From assembly GCA_965207375.1 (NCBI GenBank), contig OZ242274.1, positions 736,001-800,000 on the forward strand: DNA of 64,000 nt, written 5' to 3'. A program made the position numbers and the translations under genes. This document shows, piece by piece, positions 19,322 to 44,600 of the stretch (its first letter is position 1; each line of letters opens with the position of its first letter). This stretch comes from Nitrosopumilaceae archaeon (GTDB lineage: Archaea; Thermoproteota; Nitrososphaeria; Nitrososphaerales; Nitrosopumilaceae). Under the pieces are notes generated by a model. That model searched no databases and was not told where the DNA came from. It was given only the letters and a program-made list of their open reading frames with translations.

Positions 19322-19801
19322 TCAAGTAGGGATGACACATATAGAATCAAATCCCTCATCTAATTCTGACATTTCCAATTCATTCCACCTATTTTGAATG
19401 ACAAAATCTGGAATAGTGCCGCCTCGGCGTCTGTTCTGCTGCAATGCACGGTCCAAATTACGAAATAATACCGCCTGTATCTCATAGTCATATTGTTTAC
19501 CGTGTTCTATGTGATGAGCCCGTATGTCTCGTGTAAGGTTGGTGTCATCTATTAAGATGTTCCTGCCTGCCTTCAAGGATGCAGAGATTTTCACATGTTC
19601 TGCCTTGCGTTCCTGACTTGTGGGTTCTGCAAGGCCGTCTGGGGACCACGTGGCCGAGAGCCTGTTTAGTTCTGCTCTGTCTTGTCTTATATCATCAAGG
19701 GATATTCTGTCAAATGAAGAATATTTTGTTTTTGCAAGGGTGGTTTTTCCTGCACCTGCGATTCCTACCATGATGATCATTTTTGATTTAGAGACAGCCA
19801 A
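19322..19801 (-). CDS. Polynucleotide-kinase-like P-loop protein (AAA_33)
   Basis: MVGIAGAGKTT, IS.D, ILIDDTN, RNxxR-like motif, E.DEGF. Confidence 0.8.
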   Translation of the reverse strand: MAVSKSKMIIMVGIAGAGKTTLAKTKYSSFDRISLDDIRQDRAELNRLSATWSPDGLAEPTSQERKAEHVKISASLKAGRNILIDDTNLTRDIRAHHIEHGKQYDYEIQAVLFRNLDRALQQNRRRGGTIPDFVIQNRWNELEMSELDEGFDSICVIPT

Positions 19802-19947: not shown

Positions 19948-20931
19948 CTATTTCATATACATAAAACCCAATTGATCATTTGTTCTTACTATATCCTCAT
20001 TTGTTGTTTCTAAAAGTTGCTTCTTTACCTGTATCGTATGTTTGATTTGTGCATCACAATCATCAATCTTGTGTAGTGCAACAGCTTCTGGAAAATGTGG
20101 GATTACAGGAGATCCTAACTCTTGTGATCCATGATGACTCAATATCAGATGTAGTATTTTGTTCTTCAAATCCAGAGGAAATCTTTCTAATTTGTCAATT
20201 TTGCCTTCAACCATTTTTGTGCCAATTGAGATGTGTCCCAAAAGACTTCCTTCAACAGTATAATCAATGACAGTCTTTGTTTCATATTCAAAAATTTTTC
20301 CTACATCATGAAGCATGCAACCAGCAATCATCAAATCCAAATTCAGATCAGGCTCGTATTGTTTTGCAATCGTTTTGGACATTGCTATCATACTTAGAAC
20401 GTGTTCTAACAGTCCTCCTACATAGTTATGATGATATATTTTTGCAGCAGGAGATTCTGAGTATTTTTTCATAAAATCGTCATCATCAAAAATTGATTTT
20501 AAAAGTTGTTTCATGTTATCATCTGTAATGGATTCTACGTCCTCTTTGAATTTGGAAATCATTTCAGGGATGTTTTTAGTAGTACTGATAACAAATTCTG
20601 CATAATCAAAATTTTCTTCTTTTTTTATCTCACAAGAATTTTCATTTAGGTATATTGTCAGTTTTCTGGAATAGCCATCTATTGTTGCATTGCCGCCTTT
20701 AATTGAAACAACGTCATTTACCTTAAATGATGAAAATAATTTCTTGACCGTTTCTTCATTGGGTCCTCCCCAAAATTTCACAGAAATTGTTCCCGTTTTG
20801 TCAGCAATATCGAAAGAAAACCAGAATCCGTCCTTGTTTCTATACTTGGCAGGGGCCTTTTTTGAACTAACAGCGAAATAATCATCAATAGTTTGATCTT
20901 CTTGAAGATCTTTGATATATTGAGTTTTCAT
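19948..20931 (-). CDS. YhaM-like 3'-5' exoribonuclease (OB-fold + HD domain)
   Basis: DKTGTI..KFW OB-fold; PAA..HH.Y.GGLLEH, LHDVGK, GHI, ILSHHG, PEA..LH..D motifs. Confidence 0.85.
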   Translation of the reverse strand: MKTQYIKDLQEDQTIDDYFAVSSKKAPAKYRNKDGFWFSFDIADKTGTISVKFWGGPNEETVKKLFSSFKVNDVVSIKGGNATIDGYSRKLTIYLNENSCEIKKEENFDYAEFVISTTKNIPEMISKFKEDVESITDDNMKQLLKSIFDDDDFMKKYSESPAAKIYHHNYVGGLLEHVLSMIAMSKTIAKQYEPDLNLDLMIAGCMLHDVGKIFEYETKTVIDYTVEGSLLGHISIGTKMVEGKIDKLERFPLDLKNKILHLILSHHGSQELGSPVIPHFPEAVALHKIDDCDAQIKHTIQVKKQLLETTNEDIVRTNDQLGFMYMK

Positions 20932-21074
20932 ACAAGTACTAATTATTCATAGTATTTATTTTGAATTTATCTTCTTTTCAAAAAAGAATCTTATCATGTG
21001 TCGTTAATACATTAACAATCAAGGGTATTACATTATTACCAACACCTTAAGATTCACGATCCTAATCATTTAGC

Positions 21075-21299
21075 ATGAGATTAGAAACATTGATACAAAA
21101 AGAGGCAAAACAAACAACAAAAACCAAACTTGATGAGGAACAATTTAAAATTCTAGATGAGCAATACCATCAAAATCTAGCCAATAAAGAATTAAGAGAT
21201 CAAGAGCATGAAGAATTAATTTTAGAGTATCAAACAAAACACCATCTAAGTAGAAATGATGTATTTACCAGGATTGCTAGAGATCGTTTAGAATACTAG
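21075..21299 (+). CDS. Small charged helical hypothetical protein
   Basis: 74-aa ATG ORF filling the intergenic gap; no recognised motif. Confidence 0.45.
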   Translation: MRLETLIQKEAKQTTKTKLDEEQFKILDEQYHQNLANKELRDQEHEELILEYQTKHHLSRNDVFTRIARDRLEY

Positions 21300-21425
21300 G
21301 TAAGTGTTAACGTCATCTCTAAATTTTTATTCTATCTTTTGACAGCAAAGTAATTTCATGCCTACAATTACCACAAATTCAAAACAACGTTAACAGATAC
21401 AGGAAATTTAAAGTGTGATCTTTTA

Positions 21426-21527
21426 TCATTTTTCCATCCCCTCATTGAATGATTTTAGGATTTTTGTTGCGATCATAATGCCAATTCCTATGGCACTAAT
21501 GATCAAAAGAATTTTGTTCTTACTCAT
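21426..21527 (-). CDS. Putative 33-aa single-TM peptide (MSKNKILLIISAIGIGIMIATKILKSFNEGMEK)
   Basis: Its ATG overlaps the end of ORF 21520..21873; clean hydrophobic helix flanked by Lys. Confidence 0.35.
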   Translation of the reverse strand: MSKNKILLIISAIGIGIMIATKILKSFNEGMEK

Positions 21528-21873
21528 TATTGTATTGCCTCCTGGTTTCTTTTGTAACTTGGGTGTAGCCAACATGCACGTTTGTATCCTTGTGAATTGT
21601 CTTATAATTTCTGATTTCATTACGAGGTTTAGTTGTCCCTGCAGGTTGCATATAATCAAATAGTTTATTCTGTAAAGTATATCGATGCCTTGAGAAAACA
21701 TAACCGATGCCACTTTGGAAAGAAAACGATTGATAATATGACACACATCTTTGTATTCCGTGTATCTCATGTATCACATTATTTTGTATTTTTATATTCC
21801 ATTTCAATCTGACCAGATTTTCACATGCTGTCTTTACCCCAATTGTATGTGAATTGAATCCTCTCATTTTCAA
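21520..21873 (-). CDS. Hypothetical protein coupled to the PIN gene
   Basis: Start overlaps the PIN stop codon; no recognised motif. Confidence 0.35.
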   Translation of the reverse strand: MKMRGFNSHTIGVKTACENLVRLKWNIKIQNNVIHEIHGIQRCVSYYQSFSFQSGIGYVFSRHRYTLQNKLFDYMQPAGTTKPRNEIRNYKTIHKDTNVHVGYTQVTKETRRQYNNE

Positions 21874-22286
21874 ATCCCTGCTGCCAATTTTGGATGAAAT
21901 GCTGCAACTCCAATAAATGAACTAGTCCTTAGAAGCATTTTATCAAATGTTACTAGAACAAAGTTTCTTGCCTGACACAAACTCAGAATTTTATTATCCC
22001 CGTTATGACAACTTTGAAACTGTTCTGTCAGATTGTGTGCATTTAAAACATCTTGATTATTGCTTTTAGAAAATTCCACCTTTCTTCCCAAACACAAGGT
22101 TATCTTTGAAATTATTTTTTCAGCAGAATATCCCCTTACTCTGTTTACCTCACCTAATACTATATCAGATAGGACTATTTTGATTGATTTTCCACGGAGT
22201 TTTGATTTGAGACTTTTTGCAACTTTTGGTTTTTCCATGATATCGATAACGACACAGGAATCAAGTGCGACCTTTTGTTGATTCAT
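21870..22286 (-). CDS. PIN-domain ribonuclease (VapC-like)
   Basis: ALDSCVVID, VLGEV, GD..IL, LVTFDK conserved acidic residues. Confidence 0.85.
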   Translation of the reverse strand: MNQQKVALDSCVVIDIMEKPKVAKSLKSKLRGKSIKIVLSDIVLGEVNRVRGYSAEKIISKITLCLGRKVEFSKSNNQDVLNAHNLTEQFQSCHNGDNKILSLCQARNFVLVTFDKMLLRTSSFIGVAAFHPKLAAGI

Positions 22287-22316
22287 GATACGAATTAGAC
22301 TAGGAGGTTATTATAT

Positions 22317-22339
22317 TATATAACAATACTATGCATACT
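22317..22339. promoter_or_regulatory. 23-bp motif TATATAACAATACTATGCATACT, copy 1, upstream of the PIN gene
   Basis: Identical to 23052-23074; contains a TATA-like box and an ATGCAT palindromic core. Confidence 0.65.
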
Positions 22340-22709
22340 TTACATACTAATTAACATGCTAGACAAGTATAACAGTATAGTTTCACTGCTGTTTGCATAT
22401 GAAATTGTATAACCTGTCACAGATTCGAGTCCAAAAATTCATGGGTAGATGCCATACCCTTATCAAGCAAAGGATTTGAAAACAATATAAAAAATGCAAC
22501 ATCAGTTTGGTAGAGCCAGTCCCTACACAGGACGATATCAATGTACAGTTACCAAACTGTACCAGACCACAATCTATTCTGTACAGATACAGTCTTGTTA
22601 GATGTAAATTATACAAGTATCTCTTTTGTACATTCAACCCAGATACACAGGCATATGCCCAATTAGTTAATCTATATTCTAACAATCTACATCGCCAGAA
22701 TCCTGCTGT

Positions 22710-22964
22710 TCATCTACGCCTGTATCTAAAACCCCATTTGTGACGCCTCAGATATCTCTCCACATCTCTTTCGGATTTTTTCTTGTTTCTGTAGAATTTT
22801 TTCGGATCACCTTTGCCATATTTTACATATTTTGGATCACAGTCCTCATGAATCTTTTTGTGACATTTGTCGCATACGGGAATTATTTTTTGTGGAAAGT
22901 AGGTGATGTGATGAAATATCGTGGCCACATCTTTGCACAGTTTGCATTTTCCCTTGTTTTCCAT
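22710..22964 (-). CDS. Small zinc-binding HNH-like protein
   Basis: CKLC...HHITY...VCDKCH..IH signature and a basic tail. Confidence 0.65.
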   Translation of the reverse strand: MENKGKCKLCKDVATIFHHITYFPQKIIPVCDKCHKKIHEDCDPKYVKYGKGDPKKFYRNKKKSERDVERYLRRHKWGFRYRRR

Positions 22965-23051
22965 TTGATACTTACCAAGTTTTTTGTATCTGTGAAATGA
23001 GTTTTGGTTCTATTTGTTGTTTATTCTATTCAGTTGTCTGAAAAATTATTA

Positions 23052-23074
23052 TATATAACAATACTATGCATACT
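23052..23074. promoter_or_regulatory. 23-bp motif copy 2, covering the TATA box and start region of the CARF-like regulator
   Basis: Identical to 22317-22339; preceded by an A-rich BRE-like run; a GTG alternative start follows at 23075. Confidence 0.65.
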
Positions 23075-23809
23075 GTGTCTGGTGAAAATCTGCGTATACA
23101 CATTGCCCCTGTAGGTTATGAAGTTGACAGGATTGTACTTTCTGCAAAAGAGAAAAAGGCAGACAGAGTCTATCTGTTGGTTCATGAGAATCCTAGTGCA
23201 GACAAGGCAGTCTCATTTTATGATCAAATTTCAAAAGAACTAGAAAAGCTAAACATCGAGGTAATAAGGCAATACCATGACAGATTGGACCTGTTTAAGA
23301 TAATAAAATCAATCAAAGAAATCATCGATAAAGAAAAGGGAAACATCATCTATGTGAACCTAGCAGCAGGAAGCAAGATTCAGGCAATAGCAGGCATGAT
23401 GGCATGCATGATGTTCAATGACAATCAAAATGTTCATCCATTTTATGTAGAGGCGCAAAATTATACAAGATTTTCAGGAAAGCCGATATCTACTGGAATC
23501 AAAGAAATACAGACTATGCCAACCTATGAAATCAAAAAGCCTCAACCAAAACACATTGCCGCATTGAAAATAATCAAAGAAAATGGGGGCAGAATTTCCA
23601 AAAAAGAGATGGCAGAGCTTGCAAAAAAAGAAAAGCTGATTATAGTAAACGCTGAAAATCCAAACCAGGCCACCTTTGCAAGCCTGGACAAAAACATCAT
23701 TGATGTACTAGAAAATCAATGGCATTTTGTAAGGGTAGAAAAAATCGGCAGAACCAGATGGATAAACATTACAAAAGATGGCAAAAATGCCACAGAATTT
23801 TTAATCTGA
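23066..23809 (+). CDS. CARF-like Rossmann + winged-HTH transcriptional regulator (DUF6293/HFX_2341, Csa3-like architecture)
   Basis: RIHIAPVGYEVDRI, DRVYLL, IYVNLAAGSKIQAI motifs; C-terminal wHTH (ISKKEMAE...EKIGRTRWINITKDG). True start may be GTG 23075. Confidence 0.75.
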   Translation: MHTVSGENLRIHIAPVGYEVDRIVLSAKEKKADRVYLLVHENPSADKAVSFYDQISKELEKLNIEVIRQYHDRLDLFKIIKSIKEIIDKEKGNIIYVNLAAGSKIQAIAGMMACMMFNDNQNVHPFYVEAQNYTRFSGKPISTGIKEIQTMPTYEIKKPQPKHIAALKIIKENGGRISKKEMAELAKKEKLIIVNAENPNQATFASLDKNIIDVLENQWHFVRVEKIGRTRWINITKDGKNATEFLI

Positions 23810-24247
23810 TTTTTTAGGTGTCATGGGTTACATCTATTGAAAATATTTCATATCCTCCTAACTTGTTATAGTAGACCTCATGCACAATTGATCAATTCAA
23901 AATAAAATTTTCAAATAAAGGCTAAAAATTAAGCATTTTTAATTCAAGATTTGATTATGCATAAGATCTAGTAATCAAATTTTATACGTGATAGACTCTT
24001 GTTAAACTCGACCATTGCGTTCAAAACAATATCTTCCACGCGTAATCCTTTTTTCTTACTATAATTCTCTGCTAGATTTTATTCCTGTGCCTAATCATGC
24101 CGATTTTATGTTGTGTGAGAATTTTTGTGCGTCGCTACATGCACGTATATCAAATCAACTTAGAGCCTCCACCAGATATTGCAGCGGATTCTGTGTTGCC
24201 TGTGGGTTAATTGACATTTTTATACACGATTAACATTACTAGTAGAA

Positions 24248-25108
24248 ATGGCTGAAAATATGATTTTTAGAAAAAAGGGGATTAAGATAGATGCCAGAAA
24301 AGAATACGCAATTCCAACAGATAGTGAAAAGGGATTTCCACTATTAGAGTTAACTGAAGAATATTTTAGTTTTAATGATTTAGTAATTTCTACAGATATT
24401 AAAGAAAGATTAGAATATGTAATTGCAGAAAACCAAAATCTAAAAAGATTAAGAGCGTTTGGATTAAATCCGAAACAAAAAATTCTCTTTTGTGGTCTTC
24501 CGGGAACCGGAAAAACACTTGGAGCAAGAATTATGAGTAGTGTAATCGGATATCCCTTTGTTTATGTGTTATTTGACTCAATTTTATCCTCTTTTTTAGG
24601 ACAAACAGCAACTAACCTTAGAAAGATCTTTGATTTTATTGAACAGGGGAAATTCGTAGTATTATTTGATGAATTCGATATTGTTGGGAAAAAACGTGAT
24701 GACCCACAAGAACATGGTGAAGTAAAACGAATAGTAAATAATTTTATGCAGATGATAGACAGATATGATGGAAACAGCATACTGATTGCTGCCACAAACC
24801 ACCCGCAATTATTAGACACTGCAATATGGAGGCGCTTTGACGAAGTGATAGAATTCAAACATCCTACAAAGCAACAACGAATAGAATTATTTGAAAAATA
24901 CTTGGGAGTGTTAAAGAAGAAAGAAGATCTAGATATAGGATTATTAGCAAAATTAACAGTAAAATATTCGGCTGCCGATATTGCCACTATATGTGAAGAC
25001 GCACTACGACGTAATGTCATTTGTGGCAAATCTGCGATAAAAAATGAAGATGTCATTTGGGCTATAAAAGAACAGAGACGTAGAAAAGGCATTATGTTAA
25101 GAGTGTGA
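24248..25108 (+). CDS. AAA+ ATPase, IetA-like partner of the S8 protease
   Basis: Walker A GLPGTGKT, Walker B VLFDEFD, AATNHPQLLDTAIWRRFD; 4 bp from the S8 gene. Confidence 0.9.
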   Translation: MAENMIFRKKGIKIDARKEYAIPTDSEKGFPLLELTEEYFSFNDLVISTDIKERLEYVIAENQNLKRLRAFGLNPKQKILFCGLPGTGKTLGARIMSSVIGYPFVYVLFDSILSSFLGQTATNLRKIFDFIEQGKFVVLFDEFDIVGKKRDDPQEHGEVKRIVNNFMQMIDRYDGNSILIAATNHPQLLDTAIWRRFDEVIEFKHPTKQQRIELFEKYLGVLKKKEDLDIGLLAKLTVKYSAADIATICEDALRRNVICGKSAIKNEDVIWAIKEQRRRKGIMLRV

Positions 25109-26808
25109 ACCCTTGTCTGACACCCATGAGCATTTAGATCTTCCAACCAACGATAAATCATTCAAAAGAGAAATTCACGGTTTCGGCAGATATGACCCAC
25201 AAAAAAATATTAAAGATTTTGCTAAAAAACAAATTAAAAATTTAGATAATATAGGAAAAGAATTCACAAAGATCGATCAATTTCCAGATTATAATCAAGA
25301 ATTGGTGTTTAAAGTAAAGACATCACAAAAGGTAAACGAAAATGAGTTTAGAAAGAGATTGAATGGAGTAGATTGTGAAACCATAACCTCATCTGTAGGA
25401 AAAAATGCTGAATGGATAGTATCTACATCTGATTCTGAATTTGCTGCATTAAAAGATAAAATCAATGTACGTGTAAAAAATGATAAAGTAAATTTCATAG
25501 ATGGAATTTCAGATTTTAAAAAAATAACCTTTCAAGATAAACTCGGTGAAAGGCTCTTAGAAGAACCGTTAGGTTCTATAGAAAAGGCAAGGATTGTAAT
25601 TAGTTTAAGTAAAAAAGAATCTGATCATAATGATGAAAAATTAAAAAGTTCTGTAAGGCTGATCGAAAATTTGGCAAAAGAAAATGATTTGGGAATCTAT
25701 GACAAACTAATTACCAAAAATATCTGTCTTATTTTATTGGACTGCACATTGCATTTTGCAAAAATAATTTCAAGAATAGATATAGTTGAAAAAATAGATC
25801 GTCCGCCTACGTTTACTCTTGAGAAAATGGTAAATGAACCCATCGAGATTCCAGGTAACATGGTGCCTCCAAATCAAAATGATCATGGAATTTTAGTTAT
25901 GGATTCGGGGATAATCCTTCATCCATTACTAGAAAGTGCAGTTGATCAAAATGATGGAATTGTTGGATTACCTGATAGAAATAGAGAGGATGAACGAAGA
26001 CATGGGACCATGGTGGGTGGAATTGCACTATATGGGGACATCGAAGAAAGATTATCCAACAAAGATTTTAGTGCAGATGTGTGGATTTATTCGTCCAAGG
26101 TATTCTATGAATCAAATAACAAAATAATTCCAGATGAGAGATTAATTGAAGCAAAAATAAAGGATGGGTTGAGGGATATTAAAGAGAAATTTCCAAGATG
26201 CAGAGTGGTCAACATATCTTTTGGCAGTGATAATAAAATCATGCAGGAAGGAAAAAAGCAGTTTGAATTAGCAGTATTGATTGATGATTTGGCAAAAGAA
26301 TACGAAGATACGGTATTTGTAATATCTGCAGGAAACATCAAACTAGAACATCATAAACAATATCCCAATTACCTACTAGCAGATAATCCAGAATACAAAA
26401 TAGGTGATCCTGCCACGTCGATTCATGCAATTTCAGTAGGAGCTGTTCAAAAATTTGGAGATTGGACAAATCAACCGTCAAATCTGACAAAAACCGGCCC
26501 TGGGCTTAACGGAATGATCAAGCCTGATTTTGTAGAAAATGGTGGAGGGTTTAACGAAAACATTATCGTATTGAATCCGAATTATGGGCAGCGCTTGTTT
26601 ACATTGAATAGTGGTACAAGTTTTAGTGCCCCAAAAATAGCCAATTATTTTGCAAGGTTATTTAATAAATTTCCAAAATATGATAGAAATCTTGTCACGG
26701 CACTGTTGATCTCATCTGCTAAAATTCCAGAACAGAGACCGGCTTTATTTCCAAAAATTAAATCAAATACAACAGCTGATGAATGGTCAAAAATTACAAG
26801 TGTTTATG

Positions 26809-27890
26809 AGATGTGATTCGTAATTAGCAAATTTCCCTAAATTTCACGCCTAGCAATACCAAAAAGATCCAAATATCACCCGAATCTACCACAACTCATG
26901 ATGTCCTATGAAAAACTGGTAAAAAATACCAGAAGATTTCGTGCCATAACAGGCATGTCTACCAAAGAATTTGATTTGTTGGTATCTAAGGTGGAAAAAA
27001 AGTATCCAAGAGCAGAAAAAAAGAGACTCTCTAGAGAAAACAGAGTGCGCGCAATAGGTGCAGGCCGCAGATTCGCATTAAATGTACGAGACCAGGTGAT
27101 GCTACTTTTGTTTTACTATCGTACATACTGCACACAAGATGTAGCAGCAGTCATGTTTGAAATAGGACAAGCATCAGTATCGCGCTCTATTACCCATATA
27201 GAGCCCATCCTCAAACTATGCATTCCTATACCTTCCAAAATACATGACAAGATGCAAAGAATTTCCTCCATAGAGGAATTAGAAGAGATTCTTCCAGGTC
27301 TTAGATGTCTTGTTGATGCCTCAGAACAGAAAATACAAAGACCAGGACGCAAGGACATGGAAAAGTCTCACTATTCGGGCAAAGCAGGAGCGCACACCTC
27401 TAAGATACAATATACGACTAACACGCATGGACTAATCGTGCACAAGACACGTCATTCACCCGGAAAAGTACATGACGTTACAGTATACAAGAAAAAACCT
27501 CCAACATTTCCAGAGAAAATACCTGATGAAGCACAGGTCACCATATATGCAGACAGAGGATACCAAGGGGCACCTGAGGTTCCCGGAGGGACACTGTGCA
27601 CCCCAATCAAAAAGAAAAAGGGTGCAAAGCTCACAGAAGGGCAAAAAGAATACAACAAAATCCACTCAAAGATTCGTGTATATGTAGAACATGCAATACG
27701 CAGGGTCAAAACATGGCGTATTATGGGAAACGTATACAGGAATCCACTCATAAAATACGACCGGATCAATGATATTGTGTGCGGTTTGGTAAACCGCAGC
27801 ATATTGTGGCGGTTAGATCAGATGGCCTGACTGAAACAGGGCATCTGGATGGCAGTAGGCACGCATAAAAAATAATTACGGATCACCTCT
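26809..27890 (+). mobile_element. IS5-family (ISL2/DDE_Tnp_4-like) insertion sequence, copy 1, 1082 bp
   Basis: Ends AGATGTGATTCGTAATTA and TAATTACGGATCACCTCT; 3-bp TSD ATG at 26806-26808 and 27891-27893. Confidence 0.9.
26898..27830 (+). CDS. IS5-family transposase (HTH_Tnp_4 + DDE_Tnp_4-like)
   Basis: LVDASE, YSGK, HD, YADRGYQG, RVYVEHAI motifs. Confidence 0.9.
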   Translation: MMSYEKLVKNTRRFRAITGMSTKEFDLLVSKVEKKYPRAEKKRLSRENRVRAIGAGRRFALNVRDQVMLLLFYYRTYCTQDVAAVMFEIGQASVSRSITHIEPILKLCIPIPSKIHDKMQRISSIEELEEILPGLRCLVDASEQKIQRPGRKDMEKSHYSGKAGAHTSKIQYTTNTHGLIVHKTRHSPGKVHDVTVYKKKPPTFPEKIPDEAQVTIYADRGYQGAPEVPGGTLCTPIKKKKGAKLTEGQKEYNKIHSKIRVYVEHAIRRVKTWRIMGNVYRNPLIKYDRINDIVCGLVNRSILWRLDQMA

Positions 27891-35970: not shown

Positions 35971-36315
35971 TTAGATCCGACCTTGTTTATCAACTAGTTT
36001 GCAGGAATAATCCATCAACAAAATTTTTTCCCTGTCGATGATTTTTTTAAAATTAACACCTACGGATTTTAAATCTATCACATCTACAGTATATGGAAGA
36101 TCAGAGTCATCAAATGCAATACTAAGATCGGTCAGGATTCCACGATCTAGGGGCTGTGTTCCCTCGCAGGCAAGATCCAAGTCCGATGCGTGGGTCGTAG
36201 TACGTTTGGCCCTGCTCCCAAATACCCAGACCCTAACATCGGGTGGCAGATATTTAGACAGAATTTCACATACAATATCCAAATTAGCACTACTTGTGTC
36301 AACAGTGCTAGTCAA
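35971..36315 (-). CDS. Minimal nucleotidyltransferase (MNT, HI0073-like)
   Basis: VFGSRA...SDLDL and LPY.VDVID motifs. Confidence 0.9.
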   Translation of the reverse strand: MTSTVDTSSANLDIVCEILSKYLPPDVRVWVFGSRAKRTTTHASDLDLACEGTQPLDRGILTDLSIAFDDSDLPYTVDVIDLKSVGVNFKKIIDREKILLMDYSCKLVDKQGRI

Positions 36316-36739
36316 GTGACCTGTTCAGCTCCTGTAAACTTGACAATACATGTTCTGCCTCTACTAGGAATTCTGGTGCTATCCCAAACACATCTTGTGC
36401 CTTGTCTTCATCATATGTGTGACTTGTAATACAGCGTTTTTGACGATATTTTTTCCATACAACAAGATCAGATCCTATTATAGTTTTTTTGTATGCTTTA
36501 CGAATTATATTGTTAAAAGACATGATATTGACATTCAGGGTGCCCTGAGAGGAGGCATTTAGATAACGTACAATCATTTTGAATGTGGATTCATATGTGA
36601 ACTCAAAAGCCTGAATGACTGCACTGCGCATCTGCTTTTTGTAAATGGGATTGTTATGGATCACGTCATCATTATACGAATTCAGTGCCTGTCTGAGCTG
36701 GGCAATTGCACTTTCTAACGATGTAAGATCAAGTGTCAT
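36308..36739 (-). CDS. HEPN-fold HI0074-family protein
   Basis: VIQAFEFTYE and RCITSHTYDE (Rx4H) motifs; overlaps the MNT start. Confidence 0.9.
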   Translation of the reverse strand: MTLDLTSLESAIAQLRQALNSYNDDVIHNNPIYKKQMRSAVIQAFEFTYESTFKMIVRYLNASSQGTLNVNIMSFNNIIRKAYKKTIIGSDLVVWKKYRQKRCITSHTYDEDKAQDVFGIAPEFLVEAEHVLSSLQELNRSLD

Positions 36740-38603: not shown

Positions 38604-41600
38604 ATGTACAACGAAATATATAAAAAATTAACTAGTCTAACACTAATGGCAATCATGGTTGCTGGTGGTATGACCTTTGCAGTACCAGGAATGGTACCAG
38701 AGGCATATGCTGCCAATGCAAACCTGTTTGTCTCCGCAGAAAACTCACTATTTGACAATTACATGTCCGGACCTCAAGTAATTGAGGTTGCAATTATCGA
38801 CTCTTCTATTTCTGACACTGATGAAGGCAAAGGAGAACCTGACGTTACTGTTAATGGCAACAACCTGAGAATGGTGCAAGCCACTGACGGTAACTGGTAT
38901 GGTTACTTTGCTGATTATGAGATGGCAACAGAAGCCGCAAAACCAGGTAATGGATTGTACTTTGGTACATCCGGTTCTGCTAGTGATATTGGTCTTACTG
39001 AATTTGAAGCTGATGGATTATTTTACAACAACAAGACTAACGATAATGTTAAACTTAACGTTGTAAGAGAATCAAAGAACGTAAACGACTTTAAGGGTGG
39101 TCAAATCGGCATTGCCGAAAATAATTGGCCATTTATTCAACTATACACTCTAAATCCAACAGGCAATGTTGTGATACAGTACAATAAGGGAGGCGGTGCA
39201 CAAACCACCACATTAACCTTTGACACTGTTGATGACTTTGCAGGTATAGAATTGGACAGAACTTCTTATCCACAAGGAGCACAAGTTCATGCAACTGTTA
39301 CTGATGTATGGTTAAACATTGACCCAACAGATGAGGATTCTTGGACGTTTGCCACAAATGATGGTACTGCTTTCTATCATATCTTCAATGACAATGGTGG
39401 AAACGGTACCAACAATGCTGACGTACCTGTAGATCCTACTGAACTGATGTGTTCTGACTGTGCCTTGCTACTAAATCCTAATGTTCAAGGTGCTGATAAA
39501 CACGTCATTACAATTCAGGGCAATGCAGATTCTATGGTTGCTAATGATGGTCCTACCGTTGCCACAGCAGATGCTTGGAGAGGTAGTGCCGTAATTGAAA
39601 ACTTAGATGAAGGTACTCAGCCAGTTACTATTACAGAACAAGGACCAAACAGTGGAATCTTTGGTACTTATGACGAAGCCGACAAATCTGTACTCAAAAT
39701 TATCGATGATGCAGCTAGAGGCACGTCAGCTACTTTAGATTACAATGATAGCCCAGTATCTGTCCTAGTAACTCACGCATTTGCTGAAATCGACATTCAA
39801 CCAACATCTGATACCTGGAACAGCGGTGAACTAATACCAGTTGTTCTTGTCGATGCTGATATTAACAAAAATACCAGAGCAGACGAGAACATTTCATTAA
39901 GTGATCCTAGCTACCAAATAATTCCAAGTCTTAGGACTGGAAACCCAATTACATTGGGTAGTGGCGATATTATGGTATCATATGATGGCAGTGCCATGCA
40001 AGGTACTGATGTAGATGCCTTTAGCGACAGAGCAATTCTTGACGATGCTATGGGTGGTGACACAGTAAGTTCCGTACTAATTGACCTTGGTATTACTGGA
40101 GGAGACTTGAAAGGGTCTTTGATTAACAGCAATGCCGACAATACATATGGATACAACCTGTTCAACTATAACATCGACTCATTGACTGACGAAAACGTAA
40201 ACATATCCCTAGTTCATGGTGACGATCTTGCAGCTCCTGATGGCACAATCAAAATTGTTTGTGACGCATCAAACAGCGGCCTAGAGTTGTTACCTCATGA
40301 AAATTGTAAACAAGACATAAGACCAAGTGAACCAACTGCTCTTTCTGCAAGTCCAAGATCAGCTACTAGCGTAGCACTATCATGGACTGCATCAGAAAAC
40401 GCAGGAAGTTCATCAATCACAGATTACAAGGTAGAATATAGAATCGCAAATACCAACAACTGGATGACATTTGATGATGGCGTATCAACTAGTACCATGG
40501 CAACCGTGACTGGACTTACTGACGGCACAGAATATGCCTTTAGAGTAAGTGCAGTAAACAGCGTAGGTACAGGATATTCATCCGATGAGGACAAGGCAAC
40601 TGCAACTAACGTACAAAACAAACCAGATGCACCATCAGACTTGATGGTAACATCACAAGGTGATACTCAAATCATGCTATCATGGGCTGCACCATCAGAC
40701 GGTGGTTCACCTATTACTAGCTACACGATTCAACAAAGTAACGATTTAGGTTCTACCTTTAAGAACGCTAATACTACGTCTCCAGTAACTGGAATTACCG
40801 CAACTGTAACTGGACTTGATCCAGAAACAACATACATCTTCCAAGTAAGTGCAGTAAACAGCATAGGACCATCAGATTATTCTGATAGAGTCAGTGCAAA
40901 AACTACGCCTGCAAGTAACGGCGGTCAACAACCAAATCCTAACACACCAAACGTAGCTCCAGTAATCACAGCAATTACACCTAAAGCAGCAACAGTAGGT
41001 CAAGCATTGACATTCACTGTTGTAGCAACTGACGCTAATCCAGCAGACACTACTTTCACATACTCATTCAGTCAACCACAAGGACAGACATTAACATCTA
41101 CTCCTGATTGGACACCTACTACTGGTGTCTTTACATGGACTCCTGATGCAGCCGATATAGGTGACAAAATCTTTACCTTTATTGCAATGGACGATGGCGC
41201 TGCAAGATCAGCACCAGTATCTGTTACAATAACAGTAAGTGCAGCAAGCAACGGTGGTTCTAACAACGATCCAGTAGTAACACCAGGACAAGCTCCATCA
41301 GGTATAGCAGGTACAGCACTAGAACATCAAATCCTTGCAACTGATGATGATGCAGGTGACAGTCTTACTTACACTCTAATCAATGGTCCAGGAACACTAA
41401 CAATAAGTAGAACTGGTCTAATCGAGTGGGATGCACCAAGTGCAGGCTCACACGAAGTATCGTTTAGAGTAAGTGACGGCACATCTACTGTAAGAGGAAC
41501 TATCACAATAACGATAACTGCACCTACACCAACTTCAATAGTAATTCCATTACTATACAACTCTGGCAGTGCTTACGAATCACAACACTTTGGAGCAGCA

Positions 41601-44600
41601 TTTGATGAAGCAGTTTCAGATTATGACACCGATTCTCCCAAGACATTTAGCTCACAAAAGCTAAACTTGGGAACAACTCCTATACAGGCTGTACTAGATA
41701 CAGGCGCTAAAGGAGCAGTCGGTACTTATACTTCTGAACAGTTGAGGATTCTTAACGACACCGATAAAATCGGTACAGGCGTTGGCGACATCGTCTTGTT
41801 AAGTTACTCTTCAGCAGCAACATCATTTGCAGAACCAGGTGACGGTATCTTTAGATTGACTACAGATACATCTCGTCAGGTGGAGCATATAGTAACAGAA
41901 CTGATTCCATCTAACTTTGACAATATCATATCCATACACCTTGATGATGCATGGAGTAATGATTATGTTGATGCATTAGAGACTACATACGGTAACAATC
42001 ATAGAACTATCGCATACGATACTGCATACGACACTACACCAGCTAACATGACAGCACAGTTTGCAAGCGTACTAAGCGACACTACTACCGGATTATCAGG
42101 TCTTGATGCACAAACTGCAATCGTGATCCTTGAATTTGATCATGATAGACTTGATGCACTGGTAACAGAACTTGCTAGGACGAACGGTTATGCCAACATT
42201 GAGACCACAAAGTTCATCATTCCTGATGTTCCAAGTGGTGCTTTTGGTTCTACTTTACACGCTGATGCTCTTACATTGCTAAAATCCACAGACATGAAGA
42301 CGATAAAGTTTGCACTAAGTGACAATGAACAAGGTCAAACAGCATTAAAGGCAGCTCTGCAAGCTCAGAGTCCTAACAATGAAGTAGACCTTGACAGTTT
42401 CGGTAACATCTTTGACAGACATGCATATGCCGCATATGACGCAGGTCAAATCCTAACACGGGCAATAGATGCTCTTGGAACAGAATATACATCTGCTCAA
42501 CTAGATGCAGCTATACCAACTGCAGCAGCAGCTTATAGCTCTGATGCTTTGATATACAATACAGTGCTAAACGCCAATGGCGATTTGCAATGTATGATAT
42601 ATGACATATTTGAAATTGATGACACCCAAACAGGATTTGCACTTTCAGAGCCAACGCAAGCAACTACTGACGCTACTAACTGTGCTATAACCTACCCACC
42701 AACTATCAATGCAATCTCACCAGATGCACAGATAGTATACGTAGGTGATGAAAAACGCATTACACTAACCTCAAACGCTGACGGTGCTACATACAGTCAC
42801 GACTATGACAATCCAGCAATTTTGTTTAATGAAAGAACTGGAGTCTTTTCATGGGACGTAACTACTAGTGACTTGGATGATAAACCAATAAACATCGAAA
42901 CTATAGAGTTTACAGTCACTAACGGTACAGGTTCATCTTCTACATCTGTAGAGTTTGTAATAGTACCAACACGTGGAGTTGATGACCAAGACAGACCTCT
43001 TCCAGAGCGTGTCTCCGTACTATACGATAATACCTCAGAACTTGAACAAAAATTCGCTGAGGTAGTTCGTGTGGCAGTCTTTGATTACAATGCAGATAGC
43101 AATCCAGACAAGGTAAGTGACGCAGATGTTGAATTTGATGGACAGTCAGTTCCTCCAAGTACTCCAATAACTGATACATTTGAAGGAGTTGCACAACTGA
43201 TGAACGGTACAACATTCGAATACACCGGTGACACTATCAAGCGTGAAGGTACAACTATTACCAAAGGCGCAATTTACAACTACGCCGGTCCAGACACCTT
43301 CACCTTCAACGGTACAACATTCAACCACGACAGTGCAACACATACATTTGGACCTCAATTCTACAACGCTACAGTAGGAACATACACTTCTGCACAACTA
43401 GAAACGTTCAACACTGAACAATGGGCAGATGACATGGTGTTCCTAAGTTATGCATCAACTGCATCAACTCTATCACTTGACGACCACATATTCAGACTCA
43501 CGGCCGATAACGCATATCAGGTCGAAAACGTCCTAAAACCAGAACTAGACAAATATGACGGCAAAATCATAACCATACATCGTAATGATACATGGAGTGC
43601 CGATTATGTCGATATTCTAAAGGGCGAATATTCTGATCTCGTCGAGATACAGTATAACGCATCATTGTATCACAGAATCAACAATGCTGACTATTACAAC
43701 GATACGATAGGTGAGGTATATGAGGCAGAATTTGGAACAGACGGAATACCTGCTGACTCTGCAATTGTTATCTTTGCATTTGACGAATCAAGAGAAATAG
43801 TTCAAGCACTTGCAAGAGCAGGTAGCAATGACGGTTGGCAATTTAAGGACGTCAATGATACAAGGATTATCATTCCTGACTTGTCAGGTGACTTTAATGA
43901 CTTGACCGATGACGCACAATCAGACCCGGTACAACTACTCAAAGACACAAATGCAACAACAATCAGATTTGACGTAAAGAATAGCACTCTGCTAGCTGGA
44001 CAATTCCATAATAACCCAGATAGTTCTGATGAAGCAAACTTTAGCAAGTATAAAGAAATAACTGACGTCGCATATCCGGGTAGCGTTAACCGCAACTTTA
44101 CAGACGTTGCAGATAACAGGCACATATTTTCTGCATACGATGCAGGATATATCATGGCCAAAGCACTTGACATAATCGGACCAGGTCCAGACCAGGTAGA
44201 GCAACTCAAGGAGTTAATACCATGGGTAGCAAACCAGTACAGCGACCATGCACTGATTCACAACACCAAGATAGGTGCAAACGGCGACCTTGAAGAGATG
44301 AAATATGTCTTTGTAGAGATTAACGATAACTCAACCACAGGTGATCTAGAATGGATGGTCACAGTAGCACATGATCCTGACGCAGGCACTACAGCATCTG
44401 TACAGATGTTTAACAGTCCGCAGCTAGTATCATGTATTGACTGTGCAATTAATTCATTTGGTGAAATCTTTGGACAAACAGTTCAGATACAGCAAACACA
44501 GTCAGTTGATGCAGATACAGTCACAGAGCTATTCAACATTCCAAACAACGCCAAAGTAGGACTCCTCATAGAATATGACCGTTCTGATACTGATGCAGTA

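Follow-up and report, generated by a model that had tools for sequence, protein, structure and literature searches.

A recurrent CARF-like regulator module of Nitrosopumilaceae, with a shared promoter apparently split by a small insert

Introduction

Why does the same run of 23 nucleotides stand in front of a gene for a PIN-domain nuclease and again over the start of a gene for a CARF-like regulator? The question is raised by a region of a Nitrosopumilaceae genome (contig OZ242274.1, positions 736,001 to 800,000); these 64,000 nucleotides are called the window here, and positions are counted from its first letter. A reading made from the sequence alone had taken the regulator, the PIN gene and an HNH-like gene for parts of an undescribed module, an autoregulated and ligand-sensing switch for nuclease effectors. 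With moderate confidence we propose that the window holds a regulator module recurrent in Nitrosopumilaceae, the shared promoter of which was split here by an insert, leaving both parts under the same operator in trans.

Two copies of one promoter-like sequence

The features on which the argument depends are the following.

21870..22286, minus strand: PIN-domain nuclease of 138 amino acids (aa) (Pfam PF01850)
22310..22358, plus strand: promoter/operator copy 1, putative (alignment A2, against 55 orthologous promoters)
22340..23044, no strand: lineage-specific insert between the operator copies, made up of 370 nucleotides (nt) without supported feature and the mini-HNH gene
22710..22964, minus strand: Cys/His protein of 84 aa, from a small free-standing HNH-like family (HMMER relatives, alignment A4)
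23045..23074, plus strand: promoter/operator copy 2, putative (sequence repeat, alignment A2)
23066/23075..23809, plus strand: regulator with a CARF-like domain and a winged helix (HFX_2341_N and DUF6293_C; Pfam, PADLOC, AlphaFold2, Foldseek)

The 23-mer TATATAACAATACTATGCATACT lies on the plus strand at 22317-22339 and 23052-23074. No third match was found in the window with up to 3 mismatches (<=3), 0 of 100 dinucleotide shuffles held any match, and the whole genome (G000, 4,299,554 bases) contains the 23-mer twice, both times in the window, the reversed control being absent. The repeat reaches 30 nt at 93% identity, with 735 nt from start to start. Copy 1 is 30 nt from the start codon of the PIN gene (22286, minus strand), and copy 2 covers the first ATG (23066) of the regulator open reading frame (ORF) and is separated by 87 nt from the beginning of the divergent 84-aa Cys/His ORF (22964, minus strand); on the copies and their positions the sequence-only reading was right.

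Copy 1 comprises a TATA stretch, half-sites at 22326-22332 and 22335-22339, a third half-site at 22344-22349 and the canonical ATG position at 22356-22358; by our own count on the sequence, 24 nt separate the beginning of its A/T-rich TATA run from the PIN start codon on the opposite strand. The full canonical layout is retained in this copy, which stands at the ancestral distance from PIN, and no regulator ORF lies downstream of it. In copy 2 an A/T-rich TATA stretch is followed by the half-sites ATACTAT (23061-23067) and ATACT (23070-23074), without the third half-site and the canonical ATG that are present in most orthologues; the same shortened form is found at a locus of the same genus (L025). 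To judge from these elements, the repeat is an insertion scar and also two complete promoter/operator copies, both apparently intact. The scenario raised earlier, in which the repeat would be only a duplication scar from insertion of the segment 22340-23051, is thus borne out as to the insertion, which essentially occurred, and fails as to the word only. Contigs from two further runs, about 93-96% alike, span PIN, copy 1 and insert as well as HNH-like gene, copy 2 and regulator; because they bridge the junctions, the split arrangement is real and predates the divergence of the strains.

The promoter is conserved in orthologous loci

For comparison we used 72 orthologous regulator loci from Nitrosopumilaceae and a second sample, overlapping the first, with 78 usable loci among 80. 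Alignment A2 contains the 88 nt before the conserved N-terminus from 56 distinct sequences (>=48% protein identity), together with copy 1 of the window. Its consensus reads (divergent start codon) … AAAATTATTATATA-n-CATCAC-n-ATAGTATGCATACT-n-TACATACTAT-n-ATG, with the core AGTATGCATACT, a perfect palindrome. The promoter before the regulator gene thus consists of an A/T-rich TATA stretch and then two to three ATACTAT/ATAGTAT half-sites, about 9-10 bp apart. The first half-site is flipped (ATACTAT) in the window and in L030, and distant branches carry ATACTAT three times in direct orientation, at intervals of about 9 nt.

Two or more half-site hexamers lie within 65 nt upstream at 54 of the 72 loci, compared with 92 of 7536 control windows from the same loci, and the second sample gave 62 of 78; the motif is therefore conserved in homologue promoters, a point that the sequence-only reading had put up for checking. 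It appears to be a conserved promoter/operator of the regulator gene, its role as an operator being putative. The window is the sole sampled locus (1/73) in which the shared promoter is split by a 735-bp unit.

The regulator belongs to a known family

The regulator matches Pfam HFX_2341_N (PF19810) with residues 10-133, covering profile positions 1-120 of 120 (2e-37, 128.7 bits, cut-off 30), and DUF6293_C (PF22665) with residues 151-245 (3.6e-21, 75.9 bits, cut-off 27); there are weaker Pfam matches to Csa3_N and Card1-CARF. The PADLOC model PDLC01847, 'CARF3--CARF', matches it over the full length (2.9e-75; the label CARF3 is PADLOC's model name), and the Csa3 NCBIfam model TIGR01884 stays below its cut-off (34.1 vs 60.2 bits). 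The AlphaFold2 model, calculated from an alignment of 39 regulator orthologues (A1), has a pLDDT (predicted local distance difference test) of 93 and a pTM (predicted template modelling score) of 0.86. It consists of a Rossmann-like domain followed by a winged helix, the C-terminal domain having the order helix-helix-helix and beta-hairpin.

A Foldseek search of the PDB with this model gave 125 matches at E<=0.001, and the top matches were all CARF proteins: Csm6, Csa3 with cyclic tetra-adenylate (cA4), Sis0811, SSO1393, Can2, Card1 and Cam1. With VIA-align, CARF proteins scored Z 13-17.7, the CARF domain of Csm6 being highest (Z 17.7). The best full-length superpositions were those on Sis0811 and SSO1393 (Z 13.8-15.3, 187-195 residues, root-mean-square deviation (rmsd) 4.3-5.7 Å). 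The Csa3 entries 6w11, 2wte and 6wxq gave Z 13.2-13.7 with a full-length rmsd of 13-14 Å, hence the relative domain orientation differs from that of the regulator. A sequence-profile search of the PDB found weak CARF matches only (best E 0.0038).

In A1, two stretches of the regulator, PVG[FY]ExDR and LxxGSK, either do not vary or are conserved to at least 90% (G17, E19, D21, R22; N98, G102, S103, K104). They resemble both ligand-pocket motifs of Csa3, which the available text of PMC8699464 gives as T-h-G-F-[ND]-E-x4-R and L-x2-G-h-R; the equivalence was judged by eye, not via ligand superposition. According to profiles and model, the regulator is a CARF plus winged-helix member of the DUF6293/HFX_2341 (Crr, Csa3-clade) family, and the CARF and winged helix-turn-helix (wHTH) fold suspected earlier is confirmed (Pfam, PADLOC, AlphaFold2, Foldseek, VIA-align). 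The term undescribed must be withdrawn for this part of the module: the family is in Pfam as DUF6293/HFX_2341 and in PADLOC as CARF3, and our literature search on DUF6293, HFX_2341 and PF19810 found one experimental paper (PMC11434293). What had not been described before is its control sequence and its partner genes.

There are two candidate start codons, the ATG at 23066, inside the operator, and the GTG at 23075. In the contig of run X5 a G>A change at 23075 makes the latter an ATG, which favours 23075 as the start. Among the listed differences of the regulator gene in two related runs, 11 of 16 fall on third codon positions.

The genome has a single copy of the regulator gene. Of 24 other genomes of this family 12 contained relatives, vs 0 of 16 genomes of the order's other families; in a larger sample they occurred in 91 of 200 family genomes (E<=1e-10), belonging to 19 of 27 genera with that of G000 included; the family-genome tallies of the regulator and of the micro-protein described below include two unpublished genomes (G094, G108). 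Nitrosopumilus, Nitrosarchaeum, Nitrosotenuis, Nitrosotalea and Cenarchaeum are all represented in the 80 further loci. On a quick tree the regulator of the window is sister to L029 and near L030, both from other genera, and three same-genus orthologues are placed elsewhere; because this placement departs from genus, the gene looks horizontally mobile within Nitrosopumilaceae. A distant DUF6293 homologue (31-33% identity; L028 in G006) was seen beside a Multiubiquitin - prokaryotic E2 - ThiF(E1) - TIR operon, a defence-type ubiquitin-like conjugation system.

The PIN gene, the micro-protein and other partner genes

The PIN gene has an intact reading frame (PF01850, 6.9e-08, 33.6 bits vs a cut-off of 23.6), and the acidic residues D10, E47, D98 and D116 are invariant in 15 homologues (A5). 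A PIN homologue is divergent to the regulator gene at 17 of the 72 loci and at 20 of the 78 in the second sample, which means that the pair recurs, as had been surmised. At 16 of the 17 loci the PIN start is 45-100 nt from the regulator match, in the window 780 nt; at the 17th locus (L026) a PIN-like gene of 28% identity lies 207 nt away. The PIN copy of L020 is split over two frames. Mapped on the quick regulator tree, PIN must change state 9 times, and supported branches force at least 6 of these changes. There is no small antitoxin gene beside the PIN gene of the window, and upstream of it lies only the promoter and no ORF, in keeping with the sequence-only reading.

The following ORFs were called after the PIN gene.

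21520-21873 and 21426-21770, minus strand: two overlapping ORFs of 117 aa and 114 aa (ORF calls only)
21426-21527, minus strand: hydrophobic ORF of 33 aa (ORF call only)

The two long ones have no relatives in the 72 orthologous loci or elsewhere in the genome, none of these ORFs matched anything in Pfam, NCBIfam or PADLOC, and in the contig of run X5 both long frames are disrupted by 7 nt inserted at 21580. The ORFs pointed out in the sequence-only reading do exist as such; they are unlikely to be genes, the 33-aa ORF possibly excepted. An ORF beginning MKSEIIRQF… (21426-21620) was considered as a decayed micro-protein and rejected, the likeness being too weak and missed by the profile search.

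A partner more frequent than PIN is a micro-ORF, 25-45 codons long, on the divergent strand of 28 of the 72 loci; its core is [FY]P[RK]IIREF[DE]D..[DE]P[ML].Y. It stands directly at the promoter or directly after PIN, and it also occurs without PIN. Over nine core codons in 21 copies, 13 non-consensus letters fall on first, 4 on second and 86 on third codon positions, and CGN as well as AGR codons are used for Arg; because the variation is concentrated on third positions and the Arg codons are mixed, we regard the micro-ORF as a translated gene. A profile search found the micro-protein in 36 of 200 other family genomes, 35 of them regulator-positive, and the match in the 36th is marginal and lies within a 425-aa frame. 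In the closest loci the operon continues with genes for small Zn-ribbon and membrane proteins and DUF7220. Zn-ribbon, membrane, DUF7220 and micro-protein genes are all absent after the PIN gene of the window. Outside the window, at C1:1451873-1451962, a 29-aa ORF (MKKEKQEKTPYFPRIKREFEDDPEDREIW) is a diverged micro-protein copy, unlinked and about 690 kb away, with no half-site pair within 1.5 kb.

The insert and the question of a mere scar

The insert has no second copy in the genome and is absent from the 72 orthologous loci. Its only supported gene encodes the 84-aa Cys/His protein, for which a full HMMER scan found 103 small remote relatives, the best 61% identical, sharing the core C..C..HH.[ST]YFP..(I/V)..VC..CH.KIH. 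In an alignment of 35 relatives (A4), H17, H18 and H38 are invariant and C33 and H34 at least 90% conserved. HNH is defined by the signature CxxC … HH … CxxCHxxxH, and the 84-aa ORF has it. Pfam HNH did not match the ORF at E<=1, nor any of its top 40 relatives (0/40) at 1e-3. The best PDB-profile match is the HNH region of IscB (E 0.034); PHROG 119, 'HNH endonuclease', gave E 0.0042, and phrog_2340, 'endonuclease', was matched by 8 of 35 members. An Atlas HNH cluster came at rank 19 with a score of 0.90, and a single-sequence AlphaFold2 model (pLDDT 47) was unusable. The evidence for an HNH nuclease is weak but consistent.

The sequence-only reading had counted this gene as part of the module, a claim that does not hold: there is no relative in the 72 and the 80 regulator loci, a word-indexed search matched the ORF with itself alone, and the gene lies in the 735-bp unit of this lineage only. 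One member of the family sits inside an intein, and G217 has two copies, one beside a transposase fragment. We read the insert as a selfish mini-HNH cassette that would have inserted itself into the shared promoter, duplicating about 30 bp of it. Rfam gave no match in 21000-24300 at E<=1, the region contains no tRNA, and the non-coding part has fold z-scores of -1.84 and -1.32; the idea that the insert holds a structured RNA or an attachment site made from a tRNA fragment was dropped. The idea that the micro-protein might be a degenerate relative of the HNH ORF ('FP..II' in both) was likewise given up; the likeness amounts to 3-4 residues and is part of the HH.[ST]YFPEK core.

It could be argued that the repeat is nothing but the scar of this insertion, that one of its copies has no function and that PIN is decaying along with its former operon. 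The split in a single locus of 73 would agree with this, as would the sporadic and transposase- or intein-associated occurrence of the HNH-like family, the absence here of the genes that come after PIN in the closest loci and the lack of support for the ORFs present instead, and the multi-copy repeats that bound the module. Against it, PIN keeps its frame and its four catalytic acidic residues, and copy 1 its three half-sites at the ancestral distance; the arrangement moreover persists in the contigs of the two other runs, and split modules elsewhere retain the motif. We think it unlikely that the repeat is only a scar.

Discussion

Our proposal of a module with a split promoter has its basis in things observed, namely the repeat, the fold and family of the regulator and its conserved promoter, together with a recurrent PIN gene, an insert unique to this locus and an arrangement that persists in related strains. 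The ancestral form would be a compact bidirectional promoter, with one A/T-rich TATA stretch serving both directions and two to three ATACTAT-type half-sites directly downstream of it on the regulator side. A dimeric regulator would bind the half-sites, sit over its own transcription start and thereby repress its own gene, and the same bound protein would modulate the divergent operon, here PIN. A ligand in the conserved CARF pocket would alter DNA binding. In this lineage the 735-bp unit with its selfish mini-HNH gene would have inserted into the shared promoter, duplicating about 30 bp, with PIN retaining copy 1 at its ancestral distance and the regulator retaining copy 2, both under the same operator in trans.

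We infer that the regulator binds the motif, as well as the direction of regulation and its dependence on a ligand; that it might act as a repressor is suggested by where the operator lies, over the presumed start site. Binding by the regulator is favoured because in two independent split modules the motif was kept on the detached part. G127 has, 3.3 kb from the regulator-PIN pair, a remnant promoter with ATG, three codons and stop that faces a micro-protein operon, and in G080 the motif and a micro-protein gene are on another contig. G173 and G163 have second sites 1.2-1.3 kb from the regulator, beside an 89-114-aa gene and DUF7220. The half-site spacing would fit a dimeric or tetrameric wHTH protein.

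It must be said that several findings weigh against this proposal. The motif, with a TATA stretch of its own, also occurs about 90-210 nt upstream of nurA (PF09376), at 6 of 30 NurA loci by regular expression and at 3 more by eye, and the HFX_2341_N domain was not found in 4 of the 5 tested genomes with the motif at nurA (G020, G102, G139 and G067, with completeness of 99%, 98%, 99% and 86%). It follows that the motif can persist without the regulator or that another factor reads it. The nurA gene of the present genome has no half-site within 400 nt, and a loose two-half-site pattern occurs in the genome 8 times vs about 6 expected by our own estimate. The TATA position would place the transcription start near or after 23075, which makes the start codon uncertain. 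In the window the PIN operon is without the genes for the micro-protein and for membrane proteins that come after PIN in the closest loci. Finally, no DAC, SMODS or Cas10-palm domain was found in the genome, which is 99.95% complete, in a search to which control genomes responded; with no known cyclic-oligonucleotide synthase found, ligand control would be without a visible source.

The nurA sites raise the question whether the motif is the operator of the regulator at all. It might be a promoter or leader element read by some other factor, such as a TFB paralogue or another repressor, or a small RNA might begin there; the regulator gene would then have the motif as a member of that other regulon. 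At the nurA sites the motif is followed by another stretch (…GTTGAGCCT…) conserved across genera, and in many orthologues part of the motif would translate in frame to MHTV…M, both of which would suit such a reading. We nevertheless consider it improbable, since the motif accompanies the regulator gene at 54 of 72 loci and in 19 genera, its form changes along with the distant regulator branches (three direct ATACTAT repeats), and the motif-bearing micro-protein gene is nearly confined to regulator-positive genomes (35/36); the spacing of the half-sites, too, would suit a wHTH protein.

Two other observations concern nurA. A second element of about 50 nt stands just before its start codon in many Nitrosopumilaceae, the present genome included (loci L096-L125); it contains …TGATAACTA..AGTCAGATTATTAC.CTAG… and is separate from the ATAGTATGCATACT motif. 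At two loci (L017 in G005 and L026 in G001) Mre11-like and Rad50-like genes directly adjoin the micro-protein/regulator module, and nurA is found about 6-7 kb away from the regulator.

Antitoxins of the VapB type bind DNA and regulate their own expression, and the PIN gene of the window has no small upstream partner; even so, it is very improbable that the regulator is the antitoxin of PIN in the manner of VapB and VapC, since 55 of the 72 regulator loci have no PIN gene, the presence of PIN changes 9 times on the quick tree (at least 6 of them forced), and the two genes are divergent and not co-transcribed. Three-part toxin-antitoxin systems of the omega-epsilon-zeta type have a separate regulator. 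The module is like VapC and three-part systems in its PIN protein with intact acidic residues, its separate, putatively autoregulating DNA binder and the tiny acidic protein encoded right after PIN in relatives; it differs from them in that the PIN gene of the window has no adjacent antitoxin gene and in that the micro-protein also occurs without PIN.

It is instructive to compare the regulator with CARF proteins that have been characterized. The nearest is HFX_2341 ('Crr') of Haloferax mediterranei, which shares the same two Pfam domains over the full length; neither gene is next to CRISPR-cas. The available text of PMC11434293 describes Crr as a transcriptional repressor with global effects, not CRISPR-linked, its ligand and binding site being unknown, and as a vertically inherited global regulator. 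The gene treated here is, in contrast, patchy (91 of 200 family genomes) and does not follow genus on the quick tree, and it sits in a variable island, with a clear candidate operator and local cargo genes.

Csa3a of Sulfolobus/Saccharolobus, which binds cA4 and activates cas and DNA-repair genes, shares the CARF and wHTH domains, has pocket motifs that two stretches of the window regulator resemble and recognizes palindrome-like target sites, nurA promoters among them. The accessible part of PMC5587795 reports binding to imperfect palindromes at target promoters, including those of nurA-herA and other repair genes, and the link with DNA-repair promoters is also made in what is available of PMC7515695. 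The differences lie in the match to TIGR01884, below the cut-off, in that no cas genes were seen in 5516-47474 and no Cas10 palm domain in the genome, and in the domain orientation. Our scan for cas families covered the ORFs in 5516-47474 and found none (CRISPR arrays were not searched for); together with the negative genome-wide search for known cyclases, it upholds what had been said of the missing CRISPR genes and cyclase.

Crn1-type ring nucleases (SSO1393, Sis0811), the best full-length structural matches, are cA4-degrading enzymes, whereas PADLOC places the window regulator with CARF3 (Csa3-like) models. MM_0565 of Methanosarcina mazei is, by its description, comparable as a CARF-wHTH protein, and in the excerpts available of PMC7465815 it binds DNA as a dimer and its effects reach further than the cas genes; its gene belongs to a type I-B CRISPR locus, and this location sets it apart. 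We found no work linking Nitrosopumilus, Thaumarchaeota or Nitrososphaerota with Csa3 (supplements were outside the search).

A bolder proposal would join all these elements. Regulator, operator, micro-protein, PIN and small membrane proteins might form a CRISPR-independent, CARF-controlled stress or abortive-infection circuit of ammonia-oxidising archaea, connected with double-strand-break repair by the motif at the nurA promoter and, in some genomes, by Mre11, Rad50 and NurA neighbours; in it the micro-protein would inhibit PIN or modulate the regulator, and the signal sensed by the CARF pocket would come from no known cyclic-oligonucleotide synthase. We consider this circuit, taken as a whole, distinctly doubtful.

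Genomic surroundings

The module is bounded by two multi-copy repeats that resemble miniature inverted-repeat transposable elements (MITEs).

21300..21401, no strand: MITE-like multi-copy repeat, left bound of the module (depth about 15x that of the flanks; terminal inverted repeat I25)
23872..23970, no strand: MITE-like multi-copy repeat, right bound of the module (depth about 12x that of the flanks)

By blastn there are 43 copies of the left and 21 of the right repeat, all on contig C1 and none on C2-C4. They represent two MITE-like families with terminal inverted repeats; C1 has 2.16 Mb and 38.2% GC, and C2-C4 have 2.14 Mb together and 36.7-36.9% GC. Contigs C2-C4 may belong to another replicon or organism, although the estimated contamination is 0.06%. 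A joint from 21401 to 23875 in run X1 was rejected as evidence for a module-less form of the locus, given that partial copies of both repeat families abut elsewhere on C1.

Directly downstream of the regulator, at 24248-25108 and 25113-26816, lie genes for an AAA ATPase and an S8 peptidase, which matched the PADLOC models of the defence-system proteins IetA (5.3e-84) and IetS (3.5e-62); the NCBIfam equivalogs of this pair stayed below their cut-offs. Beyond them come a DDE transposase and, further on, at 35971-36739, a gene pair for a nucleotidyltransferase and an NTase-substrate-binding (HEPN-like) protein, typical of MNT/HEPN toxin-antitoxin systems. The region around the regulator is a variable island. 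On the other side, 19948-20931 encodes a 327-aa protein with an OB-fold and an HD domain that resembles the 3'-5' exoribonuclease YhaM (1.6e-44, below the cut-off), adjoined by an AAA_33 kinase-like gene (19322-19801). A 2956-aa ORF with fibronectin type III repeats, at 38604-47474, presumably encodes a giant surface protein.

Significance

Regulators of the CARF-wHTH type are otherwise understood almost only as CRISPR-Cas accessories that sense cyclic oligoadenylates. The branch described here is common in ammonia-oxidising archaea, with 91 of 200 sampled family genomes, and the known signal synthases were not found, at least in the genome of the window. The comparative data supply a candidate operator that can be tested, along with candidate targets: the regulator gene itself, PIN, the micro-protein, the DUF7220 membrane proteins and nurA. 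The window adds a natural experiment, in which a selfish insert seems to have uncoupled the two halves of a bidirectional promoter. The interest of the locus is moderate and lies chiefly in the approach it offers to orphan CARF regulators.

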